From NCBI GenBank assembly GCA_963842525.1, contig CAWJGT010000009.1, forward strand, positions 480,001 through 544,000: DNA of 64,000 nt, written 5' to 3'. Origin of the DNA: an uncultured Holophagales bacterium (GTDB taxonomy: Bacteria > Acidobacteriota > Thermoanaerobaculia > Multivoradales > UBA5704). The position numbers and the translations under genes are program-made. Of the stretch, positions 29,511 through 56,181 are shown one piece after another (positions within the stretch are counted from its first letter, which is position 1; every line of letters starts with the position of its first letter). The notes beneath the pieces are model-generated. The model searched no databases and had not been told where the DNA came from. It saw nothing but the letters and a program-made list of their open reading frames with translations.

Positions 29511-30404
29511 CTACCTCGCGCCGAAATTCTGCACCCAGATCACCCGATAGCGGCCGTCCTTGCCGCGATGGGTTACCAGGCCGACCCCCAGCTCGTTGAA
29601 GCTGGGATTGAGGATGTTCTTGCGGTGCACCGGGCTGTTCAGCCAGGTCTTCACGACCTCGTCGACCGTGAACTGCCCCTCGGCAATGTTCTCGGCGATC
29701 GTCTTCCAGTCGTAGCCGGCCGCGGTCGACCGCTCCCGCACGGTGGTGCCACTCGGGCTCTGGTGCGCGAAGTAGCCGCGTTCCAGCATGTCCTCGGCGT
29801 GCTCCTGGGCGGCTTTCTGAAGGCGGCCTTCCAGCTTGACCGGCGGCGCGCCGGCCCGGCGCCGGGCGGCGTTGACCTCTTCCAGCATCGAGGTCCGCAC
29901 CCCGTCCGTGTTGCGCAGCGTGGCGGTCGACTTGAGGAAGAACTCCTTCTCGGGCACGGCGAAGACGAAGGTGTAGAGCGGCACGCCGCGCAGGCGGGCG
30001 ATGCCGATCCCCAGGTCGCGGTAGTCCCCGTCCATCAGGGCGTCCCAGGTGCCGTTGTTCTGGGATTTCCACTGCTGGAGGACCTCGGCGAGGCCGCCCG
30101 TCGAGGCGGTGACGCTCTCGACCCACTCGTGGGCGTCATAGCCGGCCCGCTTCAACGATGCGTTCATCTCGTCCTCGGAGCCGCGCGCGAAGCGCAGGTT
30201 TCCCCGCCGGGCGATCTCGTCGGCGTGCTGCTGGGCGACGCCGTCGAGCGCATCCACCAGCCGCAGCAGGGGGGCTCCGGCGCGCGTCCGCTCGGCGTTG
30301 ATGCGCTTGAGCACGTCGCTCCGCACGGGCAGGTCCTGGGCGGCGGCGGTCATGGCGGCTCCGGCGACGAGGAGGGCGAGGACGGCGTGGGTGGGCCTTG
30401 GCAT
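29511..30404 (-). CDS. Secreted protein with two CAP domains, paralog of 27565-28542
   Basis: INAERTRAG; AQEHAEDM..RGYFAH; AENIA; WLNSPVHRKNIL; WVQNFG. Confidence 0.88.
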   Translation of the reverse strand: MPRPTHAVLALLVAGAAMTAAAQDLPVRSDVLKRINAERTRAGAPLLRLVDALDGVAQQHADEIARRGNLRFARGSEDEMNASLKRAGYDAHEWVESVTASTGGLAEVLQQWKSQNNGTWDALMDGDYRDLGIGIARLRGVPLYTFVFAVPEKEFFLKSTATLRNTDGVRTSMLEEVNAARRRAGAPPVKLEGRLQKAAQEHAEDMLERGYFAHQSPSGTTVRERSTAAGYDWKTIAENIAEGQFTVDEVVKTWLNSPVHRKNILNPSFNELGVGLVTHRGKDGRYRVIWVQNFGAR

Positions 30405-30442
30405 ACCTGTGGGATCAACAGCGTCCGCAAGGCCGGCCATTC

Positions 30443-30478
30443 CAAGGACGACAAGGACACCAAGGACAGCAAGGACGA
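30443..30478. repeat. 9-bp tandem repeat, 4 units
   Basis: caaggacga caaggacac caaggacag caaggacga. Confidence 0.75.
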
Positions 30479-30506
30479 TCGGCCTCCTCTGATACCATGG
30501 CGCCGC

Positions 30507-31786
30507 TTGCTCGCCACCTCGCCCATCGCGCGCCTCAGCGATCATGAGCGCCCAGGCCGGACGCACCGGCTCATCCTCGCCTTCGCGTGGGCGGCCTGGT
30601 GCACCGGCTTCTACTCGCTGATGCTCTTCTCGTTCGTCCTGCAGGCGTTGCAGGACACCTTCGGTCTGTCCGAGGGGGACCTGGCGCTGCTGACCGCGGT
30701 CGGGGTGGGGATGACCGGCGCCGGCGGGCTGCTCTTCGGCTGGATGAGCGACCGGATGGGGCGGCGGGCCTCTCTCGCGGTGTCGATCGTCGCCTTCTCG
30801 CTGGGCAATGCCCTGTGCGGGCTCGCCCCGAGCGTCGTCTGGCTGGTGGCCGCGCGGGCCCTCGCCGGGCTGGGGATCGGCGGCACCTGGGGCGCGGGGC
30901 AGGCCATGCTCGGCGAGACGTTTCCGCCCGCTCTACGCGGCCGGGCTACGGCGCCATTGCCCAGAGCGGCGCTCCGGCCGGCCTGGGCCTGGCCGCGATC
31001 GTTGGCTCGTTCGTGGCGCCCGAGGTGGGCTGGCGGACGGTCTTCCTCCTCTCCGCCTTCCCGGCCCTGGTCCTCCTGGCCTGGAAGATCCTGCCCGAGT
31101 CGGATCTCTGGCTGGAGCACCGGCGCCGCCTGCGCGAAGGGTCCCTGCACCACGAGGACCTTGCGCGGGCCCGCAAACCCATCCTGGCGCAGCTCGTGGC
31201 GTCCGACATGGCCGGCCTGTTCCTCCGTGCCTTCGTGCTCACCGGCCTCAACATGTCGGCCTACTGGTTCGCCGTGGTGTGGCTGCCGCGCTACCTCCAG
31301 CAGCAGCGGGGGCTGTCGATCTTCGGCTCCGGCTGGTGGACGCTCACCTTCGTGGCCGGATCGCTCGCCGGGTATCTGTCCTTCGGCTGGGTGTCGGACG
31401 CGGTCGGCCGCCGCCGGGCGTTCGCCCTCTACTGCGTGATCACGGCCGTGGGCCTGGCCATGGTCACCCTGTTCTGGGACGCTTTCGCGTCGCGTCCGGC
31501 CGTGGGCCTCGCCTGCATGCTCGTGGCCGGGATCGGGACGGGCACCTGGTCCTGCTATGGCCCGTACTTCTCGGAGCTCTTCCCGACCCGTGTGCGCGGC
31601 GCGGCCATGTCGGTCATCATGAACGTCACCCGTGGCGTCCAGTTCGTGGCGCCTCTCGTCATCGCGGCCGTGGCCGGCCGCTGGGGCCTGGCCGGGGGGA
31701 TCGCCCTGGCCGCCGCCTTCGCCGCTCTGGCCGCGGCCTGGGTCTGGACCCTTCCCGAGACGGCCGGCGCCCGCATCGAGATCTGA
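30507..31786 (+). CDS. MFS transporter, frameshifted near 30945
   Basis: GWMSDRMGRR and GWVSDAVGRR motif A; ARALAGLGIGG; ETFP; SELFPTRVRG; LPET; start uncertain (TTG 30507). Confidence 0.85.
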
Positions 31787-31798
31787 GCGAGGTCCACC

Positions 31799-33173
31799 AT
31801 GGCAGAGACGATTCGACCGGCAGCCCCTCCCTTGTCCGTACCCGAAGATCCCGGCAAGCCGGGCTTCCGCCGGGTCGCGTCCCGCTGGGAGATCGTCGCC
31901 TTCTCGGTCAACGACGTGATCGGCAGCGGCGTCTACCTGCTGCCGGCCGCGGCGGCGGCGATCCTGGGGACGGCGAGCATCGGCGCCGTCATCCTGGCCG
32001 GCTTTGCGGTGCTCCTGCTGGTGCTCTGCTTCGCCGAGGCGTCGAGCTACTTCGACCGCCCGGGCGGCGCCTATCTTTATACAAGGCACGCCTTCGGCGA
32101 GTTGATCGGCTTCGAGGTGGGGTGGATGACCTGGATCGCCCGGGTCGCCTCGGTCGCCTCGCTCTCGGTCGGCTTCGCGCAGGCCCTGACCTTCCTCTGG
32201 CCGGCGGCCGAGGGAGGATGGGTACAGATCGGGGCCATCGCCGTCCCGCTCCTTGCGCTGACCGCCATCAATCTCGTCGGGGTCAAGTCGGGCGTGCGGA
32301 CCGCCGTCTTCCTGGCGGTCACCAAGACCGTGCCGCTGCTGATCTTCATCGGCGCCGGGGTCTTCGCCGTGTCGCGGGCCGTGCTCGCGGCCAACGGTCA
32401 GGCGCCGCGCACGGGCACGCTGAGCGAGGCCGCGCTCCTCCTCCTCTTCGCCTATGCCGGCTTCGAGAACACCGCGGCTCCGGCCGGCGAGTTCAAGAAC
32501 CCGCGCCGGGACGTGCCCTTCGCCCTCATCGCCCAGATCACCATCGTCACCCTGATCTACTCCGCGGTGCAGTGGGTCGCGCTCTCGACGCTGCCGGGCG
32601 TGGCCGAATCGCAGACCCCGCTGGCCGACGCGGCACGGCTGTTCCTCGGGATCCGGGGCGGGCGAGCTGCTGACCGTGGGCGCGGTGGTCTCGATCCTCG
32701 GCACCAACAGCAACACGGTCCTGGCCGGGCCGCGCTATCTCTTCGCCCTCGCGGAGGACGGCTTCGGGCCGCGTGCGCTGGCTTCGCTCCACCCCCGCTT
32801 CCGCACCCCCTGGGTGGCGATCCTGACGCAGACCGCGATCGCCCTCCCCCTGGCGCTCACCGGCGCCAAGCTGGTCCAGACCGGCCTCGACCTGCCGCCG
32901 TTCCTCCAGGGCTCCTTCGCCCGGCTCGCCACACTGTCGGTGATCGCCCGGCTCGCCACCTACCTGGGCACGGCCGCGGCCGTCCCGGTGCTGCGCCGCA
33001 AATATCCGGATGCCCCCGGCGTGGTCCGCATCCCCGGCGGACCGCTCATCCCCGTGGCCGCCGCCCTGCTCTGCGTCGTCCTCGCCGCGAGCGCCAAGGC
33101 CGAGAACCTGATCGCCGGCGGCGTCGCCATCGCCGTCGGGCTGGTGATCTGGGCCTTCCGTCGTCGAGTGTAA
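31799..33173 (+). CDS. APC-family amino acid permease, frameshifted near 32660
   Basis: VIGSGVY, FAE.SS...GGAY, FAYAGFE...AGEFKNPRRDVP, PRYLFALAEDG, HPRFRTP. Confidence 0.88.
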
Positions 33174-33209
33174 AGCACACTTGACAATTTGTCTCGTCTG
33201 CTTTACTCT
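33169..33209 (+). promoter_or_regulatory. Sigma70 promoter with overlapping candidate XRE operator
   Basis: TTGACA (33181)-17 bp-TACTCT (33204); imperfect palindrome tgtaaagcacacttgaca and a ctttac half-site upstream of a membrane protein-XRE pair. Confidence 0.6.

Positions 33210-43215: not shown

Positions 43216-43219
<4 letters not shown>
42815..43219 (+). CDS. PaaI-family thioesterase
   Basis: [31 protein letters not shown]. Confidence 0.9.
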
Positions 43220-44964
<1,745 letters not shown>

Positions 44965-44979
44965 GGAAAGCCCGCTTCG

Positions 44980-45340
44980 CGGCCGGAGCAAGAGCGAAAC
45001 ACCAGGCAGCCGGCACCCTGGCCGGGCCGTCCGTCGCCCCGAGCACGATCCGCAGCACCAGCACGGCCGCGACGGAGAGGAGGACCGCTTTCGGATAGGG
45101 AGTCGTCGGCGCGATGTCGAGCAGCGCGAAGAAGACCACGACGAACGCCGGATGAGCAGCGTATCGAGCCCTGTGAAGTGGATCGCCAGCCGGCGGGTAC
45201 CGAGGAGTGCGACGGCGACGAGCGCTGTCACGATCAGGGTCGTGAGGCTGGTGGAGAACAGGAGCTTCGCCCAGAGAGCGGCAAAGAGAGAAGCAGCGGC
45301 CAGCCATCCGGCCCACGGGGCGGAGCCCCGGGCGGCGAAC
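44980..45340 (-). pseudogene. Degenerate membrane-protein fragment
   Basis: Hydrophobic stretches in shifting frames (WLAAASLFAALWAKLLFST..., PAFVVVFFALLDIAP...); no clean start or stop. Confidence 0.35.
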
Positions 45341-45842
45341 CGTACGGCGAGTGGGCGGGCGCAGAGCGCGCCGATCCCCGGGAGCGTTGGCGTTGACGAC
45401 GCTCCAGGCATCGCCGCGCAGCCGGCCCGGCATGCCGTTGACGATGCGGGCGGTGAAGCGGCAGGTGCCGCCGGTGGACGGGATTTTTGATCGCAGCCTT
45501 CGCCGAGGTAGACACGGACGGGCAGCGACTTGAGCCGCACGTCGCCGGCGTCGTAGTGCTGGTCCTCGGCCGCTGCTGGTGTCTTTCCCTCCCGGAGCGC
45601 CGTTTCGGCAACTCGTTACCTGGGTCGTGCTCGCCGGCCAAACGACCTCGACCTGCAAGGCCTCAGTCCAAATCGTAGATGGTGACTTCCATGCTGATCG
45701 GCAAGCCGGAGCCAGAACTGTGGTCAAGGTTATGCGCAGTTCCGGGCGGGAGACTTTCGGCTGTAGGAATTCCGGTTTGTAACCTTCCTCTTCGTCCCTG
45801 GATTAATCTTCTATAGAGGGAGAAGATGAAAGGGCCGAGACC

Positions 45843-46490
45843 ATGAGCGAGCCGGAAATAGGACGGCTCGACCCGCAGGTGATCCTGGGTAGGCCGGGGT
45901 TGTCCTGGACGCCGACGGAGGTCGAGGTCATCTGCGATTGGTTGTTTGAGCCATCCCGCTATCGGCAATTCCTGCATTGGGGGGTACGCTTTCTCGGGCA
46001 GTACGCCGTCGCCGAGGACGCCGAGGATGCACTCTCCGAGTTCCTACAGAGCAGGCTGAAGGGAATCATCCGGAAGTTCGATCCTTCCAGGTTGTCCTTC
46101 TCAGGCTATCTCCTGGTCTGCTTCCGTCAGTTTTGCTCGCGTGCTCGCGTCCGCTTGGAGAAACGGGAAACGCGGCGGGCTCCTGGCCTCTGGCTTGTGC
46201 GGGAAGAGGAGCAGCAGACCATCGAGAACAGCCCGGAGCTCATCGTCGACAGTCGATTCGATCTCCACAGGAGTCTCGAAGACAAAGAGCAGGCGGAGGC
46301 GATCCGGCGCGCCCTTAAGGTACTCCCGCCCCAGTATTCGAGCGTGGTCGTCCTCCACCATTTCCAGGGCAAAAGTACAGCCGAAATCGCCCGGGAACTC
46401 GGGATTTCCGAGACAAACGCAAAGGTGAGACTGTTCCGCGCCCGGCATATGCTCTCGGAACGGATTCATGGCGAGGGTAAGAAAAAATGA
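45843..46490 (+). CDS. ECF-type RNA polymerase sigma factor
   Basis: Region 2: EDAEDALSEF...FDPSR.SFSGYL; region 4: ALKVLPPQY..VVVLHHFQGKSTAEIARELGISETNAKVRLFRAR. Confidence 0.9.
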   Translation: MSEPEIGRLDPQVILGRPGLSWTPTEVEVICDWLFEPSRYRQFLHWGVRFLGQYAVAEDAEDALSEFLQSRLKGIIRKFDPSRLSFSGYLLVCFRQFCSRARVRLEKRETRRAPGLWLVREEEQQTIENSPELIVDSRFDLHRSLEDKEQAEAIRRALKVLPPQYSSVVVLHHFQGKSTAEIARELGISETNAKVRLFRARHMLSERIHGEGKKK

Positions 46491-48115
46491 ACGCCAGAAA
46501 CACAAAAAAGCATCTTCCGGACCTGCTGGCGGGCCTTCGCCTGTCGCCCCTGGAGAGGGTGGGGGATCATCTGACCGCCGAAGAGTTCGTCGGCTTCATG
46601 TTGGTCGAGGAGCACATTGCCACCTGCCCGAACTGCGCCGAGGAGGTGGAACAACTGACTGAGGCGGCAGAGGTGTGGCGGACTCCGGAGGCGGATAGCC
46701 GTCGCCTTGAGTTGCGCGACCGGATCAAGGAATCCTTGGCGGCGCAGCACGGCGGCCGGTATGGGGCAATCTTCCGTCCGGTCCGCCCGGAGCCAAGCCC
46801 CGATCCGGGACGTAGCACCAAAGAGTTCGGGACGTGGACAGAGCGCCCGGTCCCCTCCACTCGCCGGGCAGGACCGTTTCGCGTGTCCGCCAAGCCTGTG
46901 GTAGCCATCGATATCGGCTCCTCCAAGGTGGCGGTTCTCATCGGCCAGGTCGACAGCCGGGGAGATCTGGAGATCATCGGTAGGGGCCTAGCACCCAACC
47001 GGGGCACCCGGAAGGGGAACATCGTCAACGTCGAAGCGACCGTTGAGGCCCTCAAGGCGGCAGTCGAGGAGGCCGAAGTGATGGCCGGTGTTGAGATTTT
47101 TCGCGCCTATGTCGGGATAGCTGGTGCCGATGTCCGGAGTGTCAACTCGAAGGGCATGGTCTCCGTCGCCCGGAGCGACCAAGAGATCACCCGGGAGGAC
47201 ATCCTGCGGGTTCTCGACACGGCGAAGTCGGCTGCATTGCCGTCCGACCGCGAGATCCTCCACGTCGTGCCGCAGGAGTTTATCGTCGACGAGCAGGGCG
47301 GCATCGACGACCCGCTCGGCATGCTCGGCACGCGCCTCGAGGTCATGGTCCATCTCGTGACCGGCAACATCACTCGGTCGCGGACGCTCCTGACCTGCGT
47401 CAACCGGGCCGGCATCGAAGTCGTCGAGATGGTTTTCGAGCCGCTCGCCACGGCCGAGGCCGTGCTCACCCAGGACGAGCGCGAGCTCGGCGCCCTGCTG
47501 GTCGACGTCGGCGCTGGCACCACTGAATACGCCCTCTTCTCGAAGGGGGAGATCCAGTACAGCGGCGTGGCGCCGATCGGCGCCGGCCATTTCACCAACG
47601 ATCTGGCCATGGTGCTGCGCACGCCGTTCGCCGAGGCCGAGCGCATCAAGACCAAGCAGGGATGCTGCCTGCCGAGCATGGTCACCAACGACGAGGGGAT
47701 CGCGGTGCCGACTGTGGCGGGTAGCACATCGCGGATCGTCCCCAAGCGCGAGCTGTGCGAGATCCTGCAGCCGCGCGCCGAGGAACTGTTCAGCCTCCTA
47801 CGCGAGGACCTGCTCAAGCACTCGCCCGACGAGGACTTGCGCGGCGGCGTCGTGCTCACCGGCGGCGGCGCACAGCTCGATGGCCTGCTCGAACTCGCCG
47901 AGCAGATCTTCGACGCGGGCGTGCGCTACGGGCTGCCGCGCGGCCTGGGGGGACTGGTTGACGTGATCAGCAGCCCCTCCTGGTCGGCGGCCTCGGGACT
48001 GCTCCTCTATGCCCTCATCGCCGAGGAAGTGCAGCCACGGCCGCGGCAGAAGTCCGGGTTCGGCGTGCGCGGATTCGTGTCTTTTCTGCGAGGTATTTTC
48101 TCCGGGCTGCTGTAA
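46487..48115 (+). CDS. ftsA: Cell division protein FtsA with N-terminal zinc-finger anti-sigma-like extension
   Basis: ~135 aa extension with HLT.EEF...EEHIATCPNCAEEV; FtsA core IDIGSSK, NSKGMV, EILHVVPQEF.VD, PLGM.G.RLE, VDVGAGTT, GHFTNDLA, AERIK, LTGGGAQL; C-terminal amphipathic helix. Confidence 0.92.
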   Translation: MNARNTKKHLPDLLAGLRLSPLERVGDHLTAEEFVGFMLVEEHIATCPNCAEEVEQLTEAAEVWRTPEADSRRLELRDRIKESLAAQHGGRYGAIFRPVRPEPSPDPGRSTKEFGTWTERPVPSTRRAGPFRVSAKPVVAIDIGSSKVAVLIGQVDSRGDLEIIGRGLAPNRGTRKGNIVNVEATVEALKAAVEEAEVMAGVEIFRAYVGIAGADVRSVNSKGMVSVARSDQEITREDILRVLDTAKSAALPSDREILHVVPQEFIVDEQGGIDDPLGMLGTRLEVMVHLVTGNITRSRTLLTCVNRAGIEVVEMVFEPLATAEAVLTQDERELGALLVDVGAGTTEYALFSKGEIQYSGVAPIGAGHFTNDLAMVLRTPFAEAERIKTKQGCCLPSMVTNDEGIAVPTVAGSTSRIVPKRELCEILQPRAEELFSLLREDLLKHSPDEDLRGGVVLTGGGAQLDGLLELAEQIFDAGVRYGLPRGLGGLVDVISSPSWSAASGLLLYALIAEEVQPRPRQKSGFGVRGFVSFLRGIFSGLL

Positions 48116-48151
48116 GGACGGGAGCTGACTAGAAGCCGTGAGGTTAGGACC

Positions 48152-49420
48152 ATGATCCTGTTCGATGAAGACAGAACTCCTGAGGCAGTGGGGCCTGAGA
48201 GGCCGTGCGCCCCACAGGCGGAGGGCTCAGTTGTTCACATCAAGGTTATAGGCGTCGGGGGGGGGGGTGGCAACGCGGTTAATCGCATGATTGACGCCCG
48301 GCTCCGCGGAGTCGAGTTCATTGCCATCAACACCGACCTGCAGGCGCTGAACAAATGCCGGGCACCGGTGAAGCTCCCGATCGGCAAGTTGCTCACCAAA
48401 GGTCTCGGAGCTGGCGCTGACCCCGAGATTGGACGCAAGGCGGTCCTGGAGGATACTGAGGAAATCCTCAAGGTACTCGAAGGAGCGGATATGGTCTTCC
48501 TCACGGCTGGCCTGGGCGGCGGCACCGGCACGGGCGCAGTACCGATCATCGCCTCCCTGGCGGCCGAGGTCGGAGCGCTGACCGTGGCGGTGGTCACCAA
48601 ACCCTTCGGCTTCGAGGGCCGGCGCCGCATGCAATTGGCCGAGTGCGGGATCGAGGATCTGCGCAATTCGGTCGATACGCTGATCGCCATCCCCAACGAG
48701 CGCCTGCTCAACTTCGTCGAAAGGGGCACGCCGCTTTCCGAAGCCTTCCGCATCGCCGACGACGTACTGCGCCAAGCGGTGCAGGGCATCGGCGACCTGA
48801 TCACCATCCCGGGCGAGGTCAACGTCGATTTTGCGGACGTGCGGACGATCATGACCGGCATGGGCATGGCGCTGATGGGCACGGGCTTCGCGAAGGGCGA
48901 GCATCGGGCGATCGAGGCGGCGCAGCGGGCGATCTCCTCACCGCTGCTCGAAGAGACTTCGATCCAGGGCGCCAAGGGTGTGCTGATCAACATCTCCGGA
49001 GGCCTCGACCTGACGCTGCACGAAGTGGCCGAGGCGGCGCGCATCATCGCCGACGCGGTCGATCCGGATGCCAACATCATCTCAGGCATGGTGATCGATC
49101 CGCAGCTCGAAGAGACGATGAAGGTGACCGTCATCGCGACCGGCTTCGAACGCAGCCTCGACGTCGTCCGGCCATTGCCACCAGTGGTGAGCGTCCCGCG
49201 TTCGCTCTCCGCGCAGCCGGCCTACAACGCCCCATCGCCGGCCCCGGCGCTCGCCGCAGCCGCCGAGAGGGAGGAACCCGAGCGTTCGGCCGCGGACGTG
49301 CCGTTCTACCGCAAGGCCATCGCGCACCTGCGAGGGGACGACCCAAACGGCTTCGGCCCTAACTGGTTGAACGTGGACGACTACGATATTCCGACCGTGC
49401 TGAGGAAGCAGATGGATTGA
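48152..49420 (+). CDS. ftsZ: Cell division protein FtsZ
   Basis: [52 protein letters not shown] (T7 loop), VTVIATGF, tail [10 protein letters not shown]. Confidence 0.97.
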
Positions 49421-49920
49421 TGGAGAAGATTGTGAATCGAGGTCGCCATCCGATGCTCCAACTCGAGCTTACTGACTCCTCGGCATCCGCTGCTAACCAA
49501 CCCCGCTGTCGAGGGAAGCAGTACGCCGCGGACTTCTTCATCTGTCACGCTTACGAGGACTGCGACTTCGCCGAGCTCCTCAAGATGAAGATCGAGGAGA
49601 GAGGCTACACGGCTTGGGTCGACACCGAAAGGCTCCGAGCCGGCAAGGATTGGCGGAGTGAGATCGACGAGGGAATCAGGGGTTGCTGTGCACTGATCGT
49701 GATTATGAGCCCAAATGCCAGGAAGTCGGAGTACGTGACCTATGAATGGGCCTTTGCATGGGGAGTGGGAGTCAAGGTGATTCCGATAGTGCTCAAGCCG
49801 ACGCCTCTGCATCCACGGCTTGAGGCGCTGCAGTATTTAGACTTCACAAACCGGGCGGGCCGGCCCTGGTCACGGCTCCTCGAAATGCTTGATGACGAGG
49901 CCCGGCAGGTGATTGGATAG
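49420..49920 (+). CDS. Stand-alone TIR-domain protein
   Basis: FFICHAYED, W.D...L.AG.DW..EI..GI, IVIMSP...KSEYVTYEW (putative catalytic Glu), VIPI, LQYLDF; TGATG overlap with the ftsZ stop. Confidence 0.88.
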   Translation: MEKIVNRGRHPMLQLELTDSSASAANQPRCRGKQYAADFFICHAYEDCDFAELLKMKIEERGYTAWVDTERLRAGKDWRSEIDEGIRGCCALIVIMSPNARKSEYVTYEWAFAWGVGVKVIPIVLKPTPLHPRLEALQYLDFTNRAGRPWSRLLEMLDDEARQVIG

Positions 49921-50071
49921 CTGGAACCTTCAGGTCCGGCCTCCACGGCTCAGGAGAGTGCGCGGGAGGACGCGAAAGATCGCTGCGGAGGAAACGGGTA
50001 CGGAGGCGGGCACCTCTTCCATGAACGACGCCGGGAGGCATTTGGCTTTAGGCAAGTCGTGCCCGCCTCAC

Positions 50072-50254
50072 CTACCGCTTCTGATCGCCCCGGTCCCCTT
50101 GGCCCTTCGGAACCGTCGTCTTCGCTTTCTTTTTCCGATTCTGGCTGAGAGATTTGCCGACGTCGACCACTTCGGCGAACTGGCCTTTCTCGTTGCGCCG
50201 GACGTAGCGCTTGTCCGTTCCCGTGTCGATGAGCTCGCGCTTGGATGCTGCCAT
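50072..50254 (-). CDS. Small basic conserved hypothetical protein
   Basis: RELIDTGTDKRYVRR..KGQF...DVGKSL...GQGDRGD; RBS aggag. Confidence 0.75.
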   Translation of the reverse strand: MAASKRELIDTGTDKRYVRRNEKGQFAEVVDVGKSLSQNRKKKAKTTVPKGQGDRGDQKR

Positions 50255-50277
50255 GAGGTCTCCTTTCGGTCTTTATT

Positions 50278-50851
50278 TTATGCCGCCTTGTGGCTCAGGA
50301 GGCAGAGGGCATGGCCCTCGAGCTCTTCGGCGCGGTGGGTGGCGGTGTGCTCGCGCAGGACCCTGGCGCGGGCCCTCTGGCCGAGGGCGCGACGCTCGGG
50401 CTCTGGGATGTCCCGCAGGTAGCACAGGACGTCACCGGCGTGGCGCACGGTGAGGATCTCCTCGCCGATCTTGCAAAAGGAGCCGAGGCCCGGCCAGGAG
50501 TCGGAGAGGATCGGCGTTCCGCAGGCCGCGGCCTCGAAGAGCCGCACGCTTGGCAACCAGCCGGCCGCGATCATGTCGGCCCGCGTCATGGTCAAGCTGA
50601 AGCGCTGGGCGTTGTAGAAGCGCCGGTGTTTGGCGGGCGCCAAGTGCTGGAACCGCTTGACGCTCTTCGGCCAACGGATCGCCTTCGGATATTGTGGACC
50701 GGCCACCACGAAGCGCCCTTCGCTCCAGCGGCGCGCCGGCTCCACCAGCAGCCGGTCCAGCGGTCGGCTGGCGGTCGTCGCTGTAGGTGCCCATGTAGCC
50801 GAGGTCCCAGCGGTGCTCCACCTCTTCCGGATAGTAGGGGTCGGGATCGAG
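50278..50851 (-). pseudogene. CgeB-family glycosyltransferase 3' fragment
   Basis: DP..Y.P....WDLGYMGTYSDDRQP (frameshift) ...VAGPQYP...PSVRLFEAAACGTPILSD.W.GL...HT..HRA; 5' part cut at the repeat junction. Confidence 0.8.
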
Positions 50852-51798
50852 CAAGCGGAAGGAAGCGCTGCGCGAGGCCGACCTGGTCCTCCTCGCGGGC
50901 ATCCCGAGCGACTTCCGCCTCGACTATGGCCGCCAGGTCGGCCGCAAGACCGAGCTGATCTCGGTCAACCGCAGCGAAGAAGACCTGCGGAAGAACCGCA
51001 AGCCGGACCTCGCCGTCCATGCCGATCCCGCCCTCTTCCTGCGCGGCCTCGCCGTGGAGCTCGGTGCAGAGAAAGGCGAGCGCTGGAAGGAGTGGCTCGG
51101 GGACCTGCGCACCCGCGACCTGCAGCGCGAGCGGGAGATCGGCCAGCAGGCCCAAGTCGCCCCGGAGGCCCCGGAGACCACGGAGACCCCGGAGAGCCCG
51201 GAGAGCCCGGAAGACACCGAGCTGGTCAACCCCATCCACCTCTGCCGCGAGATCGACCGCCTGCTCGCGCCGGACAGCGTCCTGGTGGCCGACGGCGGCG
51301 ACTTCGTGGCCACCGCCGCCTACACCGTGAGCCCGCGCAAACCCCTCTCCTGGCTCGACCCGGGCGTCTTCGGCACCCTGGGGGTCGGCGGCGGCTTCGC
51401 CCTGGGCGCCAAGCTCTGCCGGCCCGAGGCGGACGTCTGGATCCTCTACGGCGACGGCTCCGTGGCCTACAGCCTGGCCGAGCTCGACTCCTTCGCCCGC
51501 CACGGCGTCCCCGTCCTGGCGGTCGTCGGCAACGACGCCGCCTGGATGCAGATCGCCCGCGAGCAGATCGAGATCTTCAAGGACGACGTCGGCGTCGTCC
51601 TCGCCCGCACCGACTACCACAAGGTCGCAGAGGGCTACGGCGGCCGGGGCCTGGTGGTGACCCGGAACGCCGACGTCCGCGCCGTCCTCGAAGAGGCCCT
51701 CGCCCTCGTCCGCGCCGGCCACCCGATGCTGGTCAACGCCCACCTCGCAAAGACCGAGTTCCGCAAGGGCTCGATCTCGATGTAAGGAAAGCCCGCTT
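50852..51798 (+). pseudogene. Second, diverged 3' fragment of the TPP-enzyme gene (right repeat copy)
   Basis: Matches 44067-44977 with scattered SNPs and four extra 9-bp units (gagaccccg-like); lacks the N-terminal half. Confidence 0.92.
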
Positions 51799-52256
51799 TG
51801 CGCGCGCCGCGAAAGCCTTGGGGCAGTCATTGCCCTTCGGACGTGTGCCGCAGGACCCTGACAGTTTCGAGACGGACCTGGCCAGCAAAAGGCGACGTCT
51901 CTCCAATCAATTTGGCGCTCTGCCCAATGTGCCGCCGAACGATCCAGTCTTGCCGCCAAGTGGTGGCAGACCATTGCGGCATACCTGGAGCTAGTTAGAG
52001 AATTGGATTTGAAGCCTCAAAACGGGTATGATATGCCGCGAACAGTCGGCAAGCTCTCCCGAGTTTGGACGGGCCATGCCGCCTATTGCAGGAGACTCGC
52101 GGCAAATTGACCGGGAGTGGCACTCTCCAGTCCGGCAGTCGATACCTGCCTGGGTCTGGAAGACGGACGCTGGACCGGACCGCCCAGTAGCTGGCGCAAA
52201 GTCGCAGCCGGAGAGCCGCGAGTCGCCGCTCGTTGTTCGGGACAGGAGGAGGGTTG

Positions 52257-52763
52257 ATGCGAGCCAACCGATCCATTGCCGACCTTGTAGCCCGATTGGA
52301 GGCCCAGGCCGCCTTCCATCGGGAGCGGGAGGCCCTTCATGCCAAGCAGGAAGACCTGCACCGGCAGCAGCGCACCCACCACGCTGCCGAGCTCGAGCAG
52401 ATCGCCGTACGCCTGGACGCCTTCCGGTCCGCCTCCGCCGCCGTCCTGGAGCTCGCCGACCGGATCGTGCCTCCCGACCCTGGAGAAGACGGCGAGGACT
52501 TCGGCCCCGCCTACCGTCCCCGGCTCGGCCGGATGGTCAAGAGAGTGATCGAAGGCCTAGGCGAAACCGGCCGCTTCGGCCCCGCCTGGGTCACCAGCGA
52601 GATCAACCGCCGCTTCGGCCAGGGCCTCCGCAAACCCGTCAAGGCCCGCCAGATCTCGGTCGTCCTCCGCCGCATGCACCGCTACGGCCGCATCCACCTC
52701 GTCCGCGAGGGCCGCCCGCACCACGAGGCGCTGTACAGCCGGACGGCGGGTGGGGCGCGTTGA
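52257..52763 (+). CDS. Hypothetical protein (coiled coil + possible winged helix)
   Basis: Strong RBS aggagga; heptad N-half; basic C-half ending ...LRRM...GRIHLVREG...EALY. Confidence 0.65.
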   Translation: MRANRSIADLVARLEAQAAFHREREALHAKQEDLHRQQRTHHAAELEQIAVRLDAFRSASAAVLELADRIVPPDPGEDGEDFGPAYRPRLGRMVKRVIEGLGETGRFGPAWVTSEINRRFGQGLRKPVKARQISVVLRRMHRYGRIHLVREGRPHHEALYSRTAGGAR

Positions 52764-52837
52764 CTCTGTAGAATAGGGGCCATGATTCCCCGATTCTCGT
52801 GGAATCTTCTTGACCCGACCCAGCGAGGCGACACCCC

Positions 52838-53050
52838 ATGAGCGCGAAGCCCCGAACCGCCACCCTGGAAACGGAAGTGCCTGCCCACCTGCTCGGCCAG
52901 ATGAAGTCGCTCGTAGAGTCTGGATGGTTCCGGGACCTCGACGAGATTGTCGTGCATGCCTTGCGGCGTTTTCTGGATTCCCACCGCAGTGACCTGATGG
53001 AGGAGCTCATCCGGGAGGACGTGGAGTGGGGCCTCCATGGAGCCGATTGA
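52838..53050 (+). CDS. CopG/RHH-like antitoxin
   Basis: EVP..L..QM.SLVESGWF....EIV..ALRRFL; overlaps the downstream PIN gene. Confidence 0.7.
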   Translation: MSAKPRTATLETEVPAHLLGQMKSLVESGWFRDLDEIVVHALRRFLDSHRSDLMEELIREDVEWGLHGAD

Positions 53051-53561
53051 CTCGCAAGCGGAAGCCGTGTGCGATGCCGGGCCGTTGATCCATCTCGACG
53101 AGCTGGGCAGCTTGGATTTCCTATCTGATTTCGCGGCAGTCTTCGTGCCCGGCGCGGTTTGGGAAGAGGTGGAACGGTATCGACCGGGGGTTCTGGGAAA
53201 GGCCTCCTTTCCTCTGATCTACCTGCCTGTCGAGATTTCCCGAGATGCAGGATTCGAGACCCTTGTCCGGGCCTTCAATCTCGGAGCCGGCGAGCAGGCG
53301 GCGCTCTCCTTGATGGGATCGCATCCGGGTGCGATCTTTCTCTCTGACGATGCCGCTGCCAGGTTGGCAGCCAAAGCCCTCCATTTTCGATCTCAGGGGA
53401 CGCTCGGAGTTCTCCTGCGCTCCCTTCGGCGCGGTCTCTGCACCCGAGCGCAGGTACTCGGGCTCCTCCGAGAGATCCCGGAGAAGTCGACCCTCCACAT
53501 TCGGCCGGGGCTCCTGCAGAGCGTGATTGAGGAGGTCGAGGAGTCCGGGGTAGGTGCCTGA
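53037..53561 (+). CDS. PIN-domain (DUF3368-like) toxin
   Basis: VCDAGPLIHL, VP.AVWEEV, LGAGE..AL, LSDDAAAR, GTLGVL. Confidence 0.85.
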   Translation: MEPIDSQAEAVCDAGPLIHLDELGSLDFLSDFAAVFVPGAVWEEVERYRPGVLGKASFPLIYLPVEISRDAGFETLVRAFNLGAGEQAALSLMGSHPGAIFLSDDAAARLAAKALHFRSQGTLGVLLRSLRRGLCTRAQVLGLLREIPEKSTLHIRPGLLQSVIEEVEESGVGA

Positions 53562-55198: not shown

Positions 55199-56181
55199 AT
55201 GCTCAAGATCCTGATCTCGGGTGGGTTCAACGAAGAAGACAAGAAGTCCCTCGACGCCGTGCAGACGTTTGCGCGGCACCTGGGGGAGCAGGTCGTGCGC
55301 AGGGGGCACACCCTGTTGAGCGGCTGCCGGACGAGCCTGGATGCAGTGGTGGCGGAAGGGGCCGGCGCGGCTGCCGAGGACCTGAAGCTGGAGCCGGAGA
55401 CCCGGCTCATCAGCTATGTGATGGCCGGAGAGCAGCAGGCGTTCGGCCGCGGCAGCGTCCTCATGTCGCGGCTGAGCGATTGGGAAGCGGGAGCCCGCGC
55501 CTGCGCGTTCCGGAGCCGATCGAACAAGCGGACGCGGTCATCCTCCTCGGCGGCTTCAAGGGGACCCACCGCGCCGCGAACTGGGCCCGGATCGCCAGGA
55601 AGCCGATCCTGCCCATCCCGCGCTTCGGCGGCGCCGCGAAGGACATCTATCACGAAGAGCTCGACTCGTTCCGGGCCTCGCATCTCGAACAGAGCGACTT
55701 CGAATCGCTCTCGGAGATGACCCCCGATCTCGAAAAGCTGGCAGGCCGGATCATCAGCCTGGCCGAGAAGGCCTGCATCTCCAGCAATGTTTTCGTGATG
55801 ATGTCCTTTTCGGAAGAGCCGGCCCTGGCGGATGCTCTCGAGTCGTTCCAGACGGTCTGCGACCGCTTCGGTTATCGGTGTCGCCGGATCGACGAGGAGA
55901 ACGATGTCGAACGGATCCTGCCGGAGATGCTGTCGCGCATCCGAAACTGCGCCTTCGTCATCGCCGATCTGAGCGAGCCGAGGCCGAACGTCTACTATGA
56001 GCTCGGCTACGCGGAGGGACAGGGCAAGCCGCTGATCGTCACGGCGAAGAAGGACACTGTGCTGCCCTTCGACACCAAGGACATCCCGGTGATCTTCTGG
56101 GAGAACCAGAAGGGACTCAAGGACAAGCTCGCCAAAAGGGTGGCCCACATCGCGGCCCGGCAGGGGCGGTCGGCTGCCTGA
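55199..56181 (+). CDS. SLOG-like + nucleoside 2-deoxyribosyltransferase/TIR-like protein, frameshifted near 55490
   Basis: N: ILISGG...LGEQVVRRGHTLLSGC...D...ADAVILLGG..GT...KPILPI..FGGAA; C: VFVMMSF...R.DE...IRNCAFVIADLS..RPNVYYELGYA.G..KPLI...LPFD. Confidence 0.75.

Follow-up and report, generated by a model that had tools for sequence, protein, structure and literature searches.

Four tightly linked and intact open reading frames (ORFs) at positions 45843-49920 of a 64,000-nucleotide stretch of an uncultured Holophagales bacterium (contig CAWJGT010000009.1, positions 480,001 to 544,000; hereafter the window) code for an extracytoplasmic function (ECF)-type sigma factor, an FtsA protein with a long N-terminal extension, an FtsZ protein and a small TIR protein. 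Very probably, this unit joins a sigma factor switch to a spare copy of the division cytoskeleton: the sigma factor would be held by a zinc-finger (ZAS-type) anti-sigma domain, which is connected by a tether of about 40 residues to a membrane-bound FtsA capable of binding the C-terminal peptide of FtsZ. The genome from which the window derives (G000) comprises 9.95 Mb in 34 contigs.

The ORF coordinates (Table 1) agree with the four co-directional, linked genes of the preliminary description of the window, and both the four-nucleotide ATGA overlap of the sigma and ftsA genes and the 36-nucleotide spacing between ftsA and ftsZ follow from them. The fusion gene coding for the anti-sigma extension and FtsA occupies 46487-48115 and its product of 542 amino acids (P0002) begins with an extension of 135 residues. 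A TGATG overlap had also been proposed between ftsZ and the TIR gene. The TIR ORF runs from 49417 to 49920 and its ATG at 49420 does overlap the ftsZ TGA, but a start at 49453, leaving a gap of 32 nucleotides after ftsZ, appears more likely, because close relatives of the TIR protein begin at the residue equivalent to Met13 (ML...), the database gene call is 155 amino acids long and a GAGG motif lies 11 nucleotides upstream of Met13. The linkage is tight under both starts.

The ftsA and ftsZ genes of the window are a true extra copy (paralog) under purifying selection. G000 contains exactly two FtsZ and two FtsA matches, and the housekeeping pair is located on contig C25 at the end of a complete division and cell wall (dcw) cluster, in the run mraW, ftsI, murE, murF, mraY, murD, ftsW, murG, murC, ftsQ, ftsA and ftsZ. 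The window pair lies outside such a cluster, with no ftsQ, ddl, mur or lpxC genes among the 57 ORFs scanned at 29.5-64 kb, as the preliminary description had it. The FtsA part of P0002 matches TIGR01174 (423.1 bits, cutoff 175.85; residues 138-508 only) and SHS2_FTSA (1e-30), while the accessory FtsZ (P0003) matches TIGR00065 with 429.3 bits (cutoff 295.2). All the motifs previously read in the two proteins are present, namely the ATP motifs DIGSSK, DVGAGTTE and LTGGGAQL and the amphipathic, membrane-targeting C-terminal tail of FtsA, and the GGGTGTG, the T7 loop NVDFAD (NVDFADV) and the C-terminal DIPTVLRK of FtsZ. The FtsA core shares 86% and FtsZ 85% protein identity with the housekeeping copy. 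Nucleotide homology between the two loci is restricted to window positions 46907-49420 (84.3% over 2538 bp), a span that begins with the FtsA core and ends with the ftsZ stop codon, and the sigma, extension and TIR sequences have no counterpart at the dcw locus. The ratio of non-synonymous to synonymous substitutions (dN/dS) between accessory and housekeeping copies, for which a value near 1 had been named as damaging to the idea, is 0.23 for ftsA and 0.15 for ftsZ, compared with 0.14 and 0.16 among housekeeping orthologs. P0002 departs from the consensus at eight of the 176 columns invariant in 28 housekeeping FtsA sequences and P0003 at five of the 219 columns invariant in 30 FtsZ sequences, and the last 16 residues of P0003 are identical to those of the housekeeping FtsZ. 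As few invariant columns have changed and the FtsZ tail is identical, both spare proteins should be able to polymerise and to bind each other and the housekeeping partners. The second copy in the dcw cluster, the low dN/dS and the recurrence of the fusion elsewhere, described below, all agree with the earlier suggestion of an accessory ftsAZ pair wired into an ECF signalling module.

Among the 41 genomes searched, FtsZ is present in 40, and two full-length copies occur only in G000 and its congener G003. The extra FtsZ of G003 (G003:C329:96483-97658; L039 8445-9662) is fast-evolving, with a tree branch of 1.26 and changes at 13 of the 219 invariant sites. It has no adjoining FtsA match, and its neighbours code for a GmrSD/HEC-06 restriction protein (E 3.8e-146) and a TumE toxin. 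G026 has an additional FtsZ-like gene, 46% identical (G026:C15:18928-19842), and three FtsZ fragments are found a few kb from ftsZ in G009 (G009:C185:22684-24767). The housekeeping ftsZ of G000 (G000:C25, L005 16821-18083) codes for GGGTGGG, and GGGTGTG is found in the accessory copy and in 25 of the 30 housekeeping sequences. A degenerate housekeeping FtsZ was considered and rejected, as GGGTGGG also occurs in the main copy of G026 and the sole detected copy of G015.

The N-terminal extension of P0002 is supported as a ZAS-type anti-sigma domain, the label given to it previously, by invariant residues, profile matches and a model of its complex with the sigma factor. Residues 1-95 are conserved among relatives, while residues 96-135 form a variable linker (alignments A1 and A2), with a predicted local distance difference test score (pLDDT) below 50 over residues 93-127. 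H28, H43, C47, C50 and W64 are invariant in all ten aligned sequences, stand-alone zf-HC2 proteins included, giving the zinc-ligand pattern H-x3-C-x2-C with an upstream His of the ZAS motif, and helices are modelled at residues 31-46, 48-64 and 67-88. A deletion of ten residues between H28 and H43 is common to all five FtsA fusions known (see below), but is not found in stand-alone ZAS proteins or in P0316, a fusion to FtsZ. P0002 itself has no match to Pfam zf-HC2 (PF13490) at E<=0.01 and reaches 19.3 bits against NF052375 (cutoff 100). A profile built from four extensions, however, retrieved 101 proteins at E<=1e-3 from 1.84 billion representatives. The best-scoring of these and four longer ones, 23 in all, were run against Pfam: 19 of the 21 stand-alone proteins are zf-HC2 at E<=0.01, with 14 of the 21 reaching the Pfam cutoff, and the other two of the 23 are a further FtsA fusion (P0251) and the FtsZ fusion P0316. 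One stand-alone match carries the name RsiW in one source. Against PDB sequences the profile found no match at E<=10.

The complex was modelled from the sigma factor (alignment of six rows) and extension residues 1-95 (four rows), with an ipSAE of 0.76 against 0.02 for the best of three controls, a partner pLDDT of 64 and at least 58% of the contacts agreeing between runs. In the calibration of this approach, the mark was reached by 116 of 157 solved complexes and two of 215 mismatched pairs. The confident interface is formed between sigma residues 24-76 and the helix at extension residues 56-85, and the model supports the predicted binding of the extension to the co-encoded sigma factor.

The sigma factor matches TIGR02937 over residues 41-207 (73.8 bits, cutoff 42.9), which identifies it as an ECF (group 4) sigma-70 factor. 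Its region 4 is matched by Sigma70_r4_2 (PF08281; 63.1 bits, E 1.9e-17), while its region 2 obtains just 17.6 bits with Pfam Sigma70_r2, under the cutoff of 24. It seems to belong to a tiny family: only five close relatives (53-70% identity) were found among the 5.8 billion proteins searched, and no ortholog was found in 40 relatives of G000, the five congeners included.

The fourth protein matches TIR_2 (87.6 bits, E 1.2e-24) and aligns to the AbTIR NADase, the Glu of its YEW motif standing opposite that of YEL in AbTIR, the catalytic residue of the latter. All 14 close relatives compared retain this Glu, so that by sequence the protein has the fold and the Glu of enzymatic TIR domains. Its PADLOC matches are Aga_TIR (9e-17) and ThsB (4e-7), and it obtains 26.8 bits with PF08937 and 20.4 bits with the NCBIfam Thoeris type III model ThcB4 (cutoff 220). 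No ThsA-like ORF, as would be expected of a Thoeris system, is present in the operon or in the neighbouring ORFs that were scanned. The subfamily to which the TIR protein belongs is large and widespread, with 362 hits.

Searches beyond the window suggest that the unit is conserved but very rare. Three other proteins spanning the extension and FtsA (P0006, P0007 and P0008), all metagenomic, were found among the 5.8 billion proteins, and the more distant P0251 from the profile search, on a contig of 1962 bp, brings the known FtsA fusions to five. Sigma P0126 and fusion P0006 are encoded on contigs of identical size (4689 bp), as are fusion P0008 and TIR P0136 (4588 bp), fusion P0007 and TIR P0162 (12903 bp), and sigma P0128 and TIR P0137 (6479 bp); from these coinciding sizes, rather than from DNA, it is inferred that sigma, fusion and TIR genes are linked on four metagenome contigs. 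The search for the arrangement in other genomes, proposed in the preliminary description, thus yielded four further anti-sigma::FtsA fusions, together with sigma, fusion and TIR relatives on contigs matched by size only. The extension was found in one of the 401 genomes of the phylum (G000 itself) and in none of the five congeners, while pattern scans of 185,579 species genomes revealed no further carrier and a search for loci in metagenome and genome contigs with alignment A2 of the extension found nothing. Neither a comparison of the sigma and extension DNA with 72,556 plasmids (blastn) nor one of the sigma factor with 50,697 phage records (tblastn) gave a match.

The protein P0316 (506 amino acids, on a contig of 3544 bp) consists of a full-length ZAS domain fused to the N-terminus of FtsZ, with a Tubulin domain at residues 125-283, FtsZ_C at 333-429 and a C-terminal DIPAFMR. 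The ten-residue deletion of the FtsA fusions is absent from it, which suggests that a fusion of this type occurred here independently.

The four fusion FtsA cores included in a tree of 32 FtsA sequences do not group together. Each was recovered with a housekeeping FtsA as its sister, from a different genus in every case: for P0002 that of G000 itself (support 97/91), for P0006 that of G019 (98/84), for P0007 that of G023 (84/80) and for P0008 that of G020 (95/83), and constraining these four to one clade costs 35.9 log-likelihood units (approximately unbiased test, p-AU 0.009). The end branches of the fusion cores measure 0.18-1.07, where the median is 0.039. For FtsZ, too, the accessory and housekeeping proteins of G000 are sisters (support 89/87), and the end branches of the accessory copies are some four to five times longer than those of the housekeeping copies (0.21 against 0.039 for FtsA, 0.30 against 0.078 for FtsZ). 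A tree built from columns 1-125 of the FtsA core lacks resolution: the pairing of P0002 with the housekeeping FtsA of G000 is lost, but a clade of fusions is not demonstrated either.

The synonymous divergence (pS) of the accessory from the housekeeping copy is uneven along both genes. In ftsA it is 0.38-0.46 over core codons 1-125, falls to 0.10-0.16 over codons 151-275 and rises to about 0.5 at the 3' end of the core; over codons 151-250 it lies below the pS of the G000 and G004 orthologs (0.17-0.30). In ftsZ it is 0.48-0.70 over codons 1-175, 0.18 over codons 176-225 and 0.20-0.22 over codons 301-375. The GC content at third codon positions (GC3) is 0.74 in the sigma gene, 0.76 in the extension, 0.71 in the TIR gene, 0.81 in ftsZ and 0.89-0.95 in the neighbouring genes, and within the FtsA core its rise from 0.78 over codons 1-125 to 0.91 over codons 151-350 follows the mosaic of synonymous divergence. 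These two patterns indicate probable gene conversion, with a tract at ftsA core codons ~151-350. In ftsZ codons 101-175, the accessory copy is synonymously nearer to the ftsZ of G004 than to its own housekeeping ftsZ.

Since the ten-residue deletion in the extension is shared by all five FtsA fusions, we read the fusion as having arisen once, with repeated later overwriting of parts of the FtsA and FtsZ cores by the housekeeping genes of the host genome. Such overwriting would explain the resemblance of the spare proteins to those of their host without selection. Selection for mimicry of the host proteins was therefore rejected as the explanation of this resemblance, the mosaic of synonymous divergence and GC3 showing that gene conversion suffices. 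In lineages that are older or have escaped conversion the FtsA core drifts, with P0008 departing at 39 and P0251 at 59 of the 176 housekeeping-invariant FtsA sites. P0007 and P0008 share 11 departures where 3.1 are expected (p 4e-6) and P0008 and P0251 share 22 where 13.1 are expected, overlaps which are inflated by variation in constraint among sites. In P0251 the ATP motifs are degenerate, with DIGEATTE and LTGAGALL in place of the standard ones. The divergence of this protein suggests that a tethering scaffold, and not necessarily canonical division activity, is what has been kept across the family.

The core of the unit is an ECF/ZAS switch of a known kind, while the sensor, a spare divisome core, and the TIR output are unprecedented in the literature searched. 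As in the SigR-RsrA, SigL-RslA and SigW-RsiW pairs, a sigma gene is followed by a translationally coupled N-terminal helical H-x3-C-x2-C domain, which retrieves zf-HC2 proteins in profile searches and is modelled on region 2 of the sigma factor. The domain in the window is, however, joined to a complete FtsA rather than being a transmembrane/periplasmic sensor or a free cytoplasmic redox sensor, has the ten-residue deletion between its first His and HxxxCxxC and falls by itself below the Pfam and NCBIfam thresholds, and its sigma factor has an extra N-terminal segment and a weak region 2 match. The FtsA-FtsZ pair resembles that of dcw clusters in gene order, in all catalytic and interaction motifs and in its 85-86% identity, but differs in its place beside sigma and TIR genes outside a dcw cluster, its N-terminal anti-sigma domain, its longer branches and its lower GC3. 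The TIR protein is comparable to Thoeris ThsB and other TIR-only defence proteins in its small size and conserved Glu, but there is no ThsA-type gene in the operon, the ThsB/Thoeris NCBIfam scores are far under their cutoffs and its partners are FtsZ, FtsA and a sigma factor.

Several reported systems resemble parts of this logic. CapRel(Ebc) immunity is triggered by FtsZ bound by the T7 protein Gp0.4 (PMC13423816), and is alike only in its logic, in that a phage protein acting on a component of the division machinery could set off an immune effector; the system described there uses the sole FtsZ of the cell and a fused toxin-antitoxin, with no spare FtsZ or FtsA, sigma factor or TIR protein. 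The ECF sigma/anti-sigma pair DdvS/DdvA controls a CBASS-CRISPR defence island (PMC11506125) and thereby provides a transcriptional gate of immune effectors of the kind considered here, but DdvA is transmembrane, the effectors are CBASS and type III-B CRISPR, and no cytoskeletal protein is involved. In Bacillus sporulation, SpoIIE couples the activation of sigma-F to the septum (PMC3517971, PMC4945075) and is alike in physically tying sigma activation to an FtsZ-associated septal membrane protein. The coupling there is indirect, through a phosphatase acting on an anti-anti-sigma factor, in another phylum, and without an FtsA fusion, spare FtsZ or TIR protein. Predicted conflict systems include rare domains of the FtsZ/tubulin superfamily (PMC7159879). 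A search of the main texts of articles available without subscription found no anti-sigma::FtsA or FtsZ fusion and no accessory ftsAZ-TIR operon, in line with the earlier remark that no described system with this layout was known.

A mechanism can be proposed from this architecture. The sigma factor would be made together with the fusion protein and held by its ZAS-type N-terminal domain, which the flexible tether of about 40 residues connects to the complete FtsA. FtsA would sit at the membrane through its C-terminal helix and bind the C-terminal peptide of the spare FtsZ and, very probably, of the housekeeping FtsZ, so that the sigma factor would be parked on membrane-bound FtsA/FtsZ assemblies. 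Disturbance of these assemblies, or oxidation of the Zn/thiol site of the anti-sigma domain, would free the sigma factor, which would then activate transcription, its own operon being the simplest target. More of the co-encoded TIR protein would be made and NAD+ would be consumed, leading to arrest or death of the cell or to a signal nucleotide. Ectopic gene conversion would keep the spare FtsA and FtsZ like those of the host.

Of the two functions suggested in the preliminary description, conditional division and guard or decoy, we favour the latter, and our best if tentative reading of this mechanism is a guard of the divisome against phages or other division inhibitors, akin to effector-triggered immunity and with the TIR protein as its output, a reading to which we give somewhat less than even credence. 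It is also possible, though less likely than not, that the spare FtsA and FtsZ act as bait in the manner of an integrated decoy and are kept host-like by recurrent gene conversion, the binding of an inhibitor freeing the sigma factor and leading to TIR NADase activity and abortive infection, with P0316 as a second invention of the same device. Pointing towards conflict or defence are the sporadic distribution, the low GC3 of the sigma gene, extension and TIR gene, the repeat-bracketed stretch and its defence-like neighbours, and further the extra FtsZ of G003 beside the GmrSD/HEC-06 and TumE genes and the diverged P0251.

A number of observations weigh against the defence reading and the switch on which it is built. 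A promoter scan of the operon yielded a single sigma-70-like site, inside ftsA, and no defensible ECF-type promoter; the same effort found no convincing terminator 3' of the TIR gene. A warning given by the modelling tool applies to the complex model, whose pass may stem from resemblance to sigma/anti-sigma complexes already solved. The fold model of the extension has a mean pLDDT of 67.6 and a predicted template modelling (pTM) score of 0.35, and with it Foldseek found nothing below an E-value of 5.8. VIA-align gave a top Z of 5.3 to unrelated membrane helices, with RslA (3hug_B) and RsiW (5wuq_C) at only Z 3.4, ranks 49-50, amid unrelated helical proteins. The linkage on the metagenome contigs depends on a match in size and not on DNA that was read, and FtsZ is not directly seen there. 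None of the 160 loci with close TIR relatives has a sigma, extension, FtsA or FtsZ relative nearby, which indicates that the TIR protein is not specific to this unit but shared widely, and that it was drawn from a common pool. The sigma factor and FtsZ match no model of PADLOC-DB 2.0 and FtsA has one short core match (PDC-M61B), the TIR protein matching generic TIR models only, so that the unit does not correspond to a known defence system. Gene conversion between paralogs offers a neutral explanation of the host-like character of the spare FtsA and FtsZ, which is thus no evidence for mimicry, and intact, conservatively evolving FtsA and FtsZ fit a working division function equally well.

Such a function is the substance of a second explanation, the main rival, which we consider somewhat unlikely: a stress-responsive or differentiation-linked division module, in which the ZAS domain responds to thiol or oxidative stress by releasing the sigma factor, the latter induces additional FtsA and FtsZ in balance, so that division can restart or be relocated, and the TIR protein tunes NAD+ metabolism or signalling. 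The conserved H-x3-C-x2-C is in keeping with it, ZAS proteins such as RsrA being described as redox sensors (PMC4960319, PMC3177212), and SpoIIE/sigma-F is a precedent for coupling a septum protein to a sigma factor. Both FtsA and FtsZ are intact, evolve under purifying selection and were duplicated as a pair, with their ratio preserved. For physiological control of division, however, it is odd that the module occurs in one of 401 genomes of the phylum and that five congeners lack a sigma ortholog. The diverged FtsA cores of P0251 (59/176) and P0008 (39/176), the former with degenerate ATP motifs, also speak against it, as do the low GC3, the location among repeats and defence-like genes, and the inclusion of a TIR enzyme. 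We know of no role of TIR enzymes in division.

The low GC3 of the module-specific genes and the sporadic distribution would also suit the cargo of a mobile element, with an FtsA/FtsZ-like pair serving segregation or addiction, a toxic TIR protein and the sigma/anti-sigma pair as regulator, and the module does lie in a 5.9-kb stretch between 0.9-kb direct repeats, adjoined by fragments with homologs on other contigs of a congener. Yet 44982-50851 holds no integrase, replication or transfer gene, the comparisons with plasmids (72,556) and, for the sigma factor, phage records (50,697) gave no match, and FtsZ is nearly identical to the housekeeping protein at conserved sites, presumably unlike dedicated segregation tubulins; this origin is very unlikely. 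Least probable of all, and highly unlikely, is a chance juxtaposition without a joint function, in which a duplicated ftsAZ pair was inserted with an unrelated sigma/anti-sigma pair on one side and a TIR gene on the other, the fusion being accidental or an error of assembly. The region is rearranged and the assembly has many split ORFs resembling indel errors, but four further full-length proteins, each from an independent assembly, show the same fusion with the identical ten-residue deletion, relatives of sigma, fusion and TIR lie on equal-sized contigs, dN/dS is 0.15-0.23 and the complex model supports binding between extension and sigma factor.

If the proposed guard mechanism is correct, the unit would be the first sigma/anti-sigma switch with the division cytoskeleton as its sensor and the first dedicated spare FtsA/FtsZ pair in a bacterial signalling or immune device, in parallel with the integrated decoys of plants and the FtsZ-dependent triggering of CapRel. 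The detection of attack on the divisome would become testable, with a compact four-gene system for its study. Should the unit prove to serve normal physiology, the independent fusions of an anti-sigma domain to FtsA and to FtsZ would still link division and transcription in a way new to the literature searched, and the recurrent homogenisation of an accessory copy of an essential gene by its housekeeping paralog would be a clean example of concerted evolution in that case also.

Table 1. Features of the four-gene unit and its surroundings (positions in the window)
Feature	Position	Strand	Description
Direct repeat, left copy	44067..44981	+	3' end of intact thiamine pyrophosphate (TPP)-enzyme gene (~43216-44964; TPP_enzyme_N, M, C)
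ECF-type sigma factor P0001	45843..46490	+	215 amino acids; conserved N-terminal extension of ~40 residues
Zinc-finger (ZAS-type) anti-sigma domain (predicted)	46487..46771	+	residues 1-95 of fusion P0002
Variable linker, Pro/Arg/Ser-rich	46772..46891	+	~40 residues between anti-sigma domain and FtsA
FtsA core, complete	46892..48115	+	residues 136-542 of P0002; ATP motifs, C-terminal membrane-targeting helix
Probable gene-conversion tract from housekeeping ftsA	47342..47941	+	core codons ~151-350
Accessory FtsZ P0003, complete	48152..49420	+	422 amino acids; with C-terminal FtsA-binding peptide
TIR-only protein	49453..49920	+	155 amino acids from Met13; alternative start 49420 overlaps ftsZ stop
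Direct repeat, right copy	50852..51802	+	3' TPP-enzyme gene fragment; ORF 51054-51785 has only TPP_enzyme_C
Candidate defence gene PDC-S70	53037..53561	+	PADLOC E 3e-20
TIR-like 'Effector'	55480..56181	+	PADLOC PDLC00733 4.7e-20; Pfam only weak Nuc_deoxyrib_tr

The surroundings of the unit appear to be a rearranged patchwork. The two copies of the 0.9-kb repeat, which bracket the ~5.9 kb containing the module, are 92.5% identical over 335 bp and then 99% identical over 607 bp (blastn). In all five congeners the homology to the TPP-enzyme gene stops at its stop codon, with no module after it. No integrase, replication or transfer genes were seen between the repeats. The module flanks at 44979-45386 and 50077-50857 match separate contigs of the congener G004 (C179, 78%, and C104, 80%), the latter flank corresponding to the 3' portion of a minus-strand glycosyltransferase gene. 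PDC-S70 and the TIR-like effector lie 3-6 kb downstream of the module, with a beta-lactamase-family gene between them.

Split or run-together ORFs are found in the housekeeping locus L005 (G000:C25:238000-257999), where ftsI is in two frames and ftsW runs into murG, murD being similarly affected, and at 29568-33184 of the window, in genes for a major facilitator superfamily (MFS) transporter and an amino-acid permease. These look like assembly indel errors rather than pseudogenes, and the four ORFs of the module are intact. The ORF at 52028-52771 matches no Pfam or PADLOC model, and the sequence at 52248-52850 of the window recurs many times in G000 (for example on C13, 82%) and is matched at 65-82% identity in each of the five congeners, so that this stretch may be a multi-copy gene family or some kind of element.

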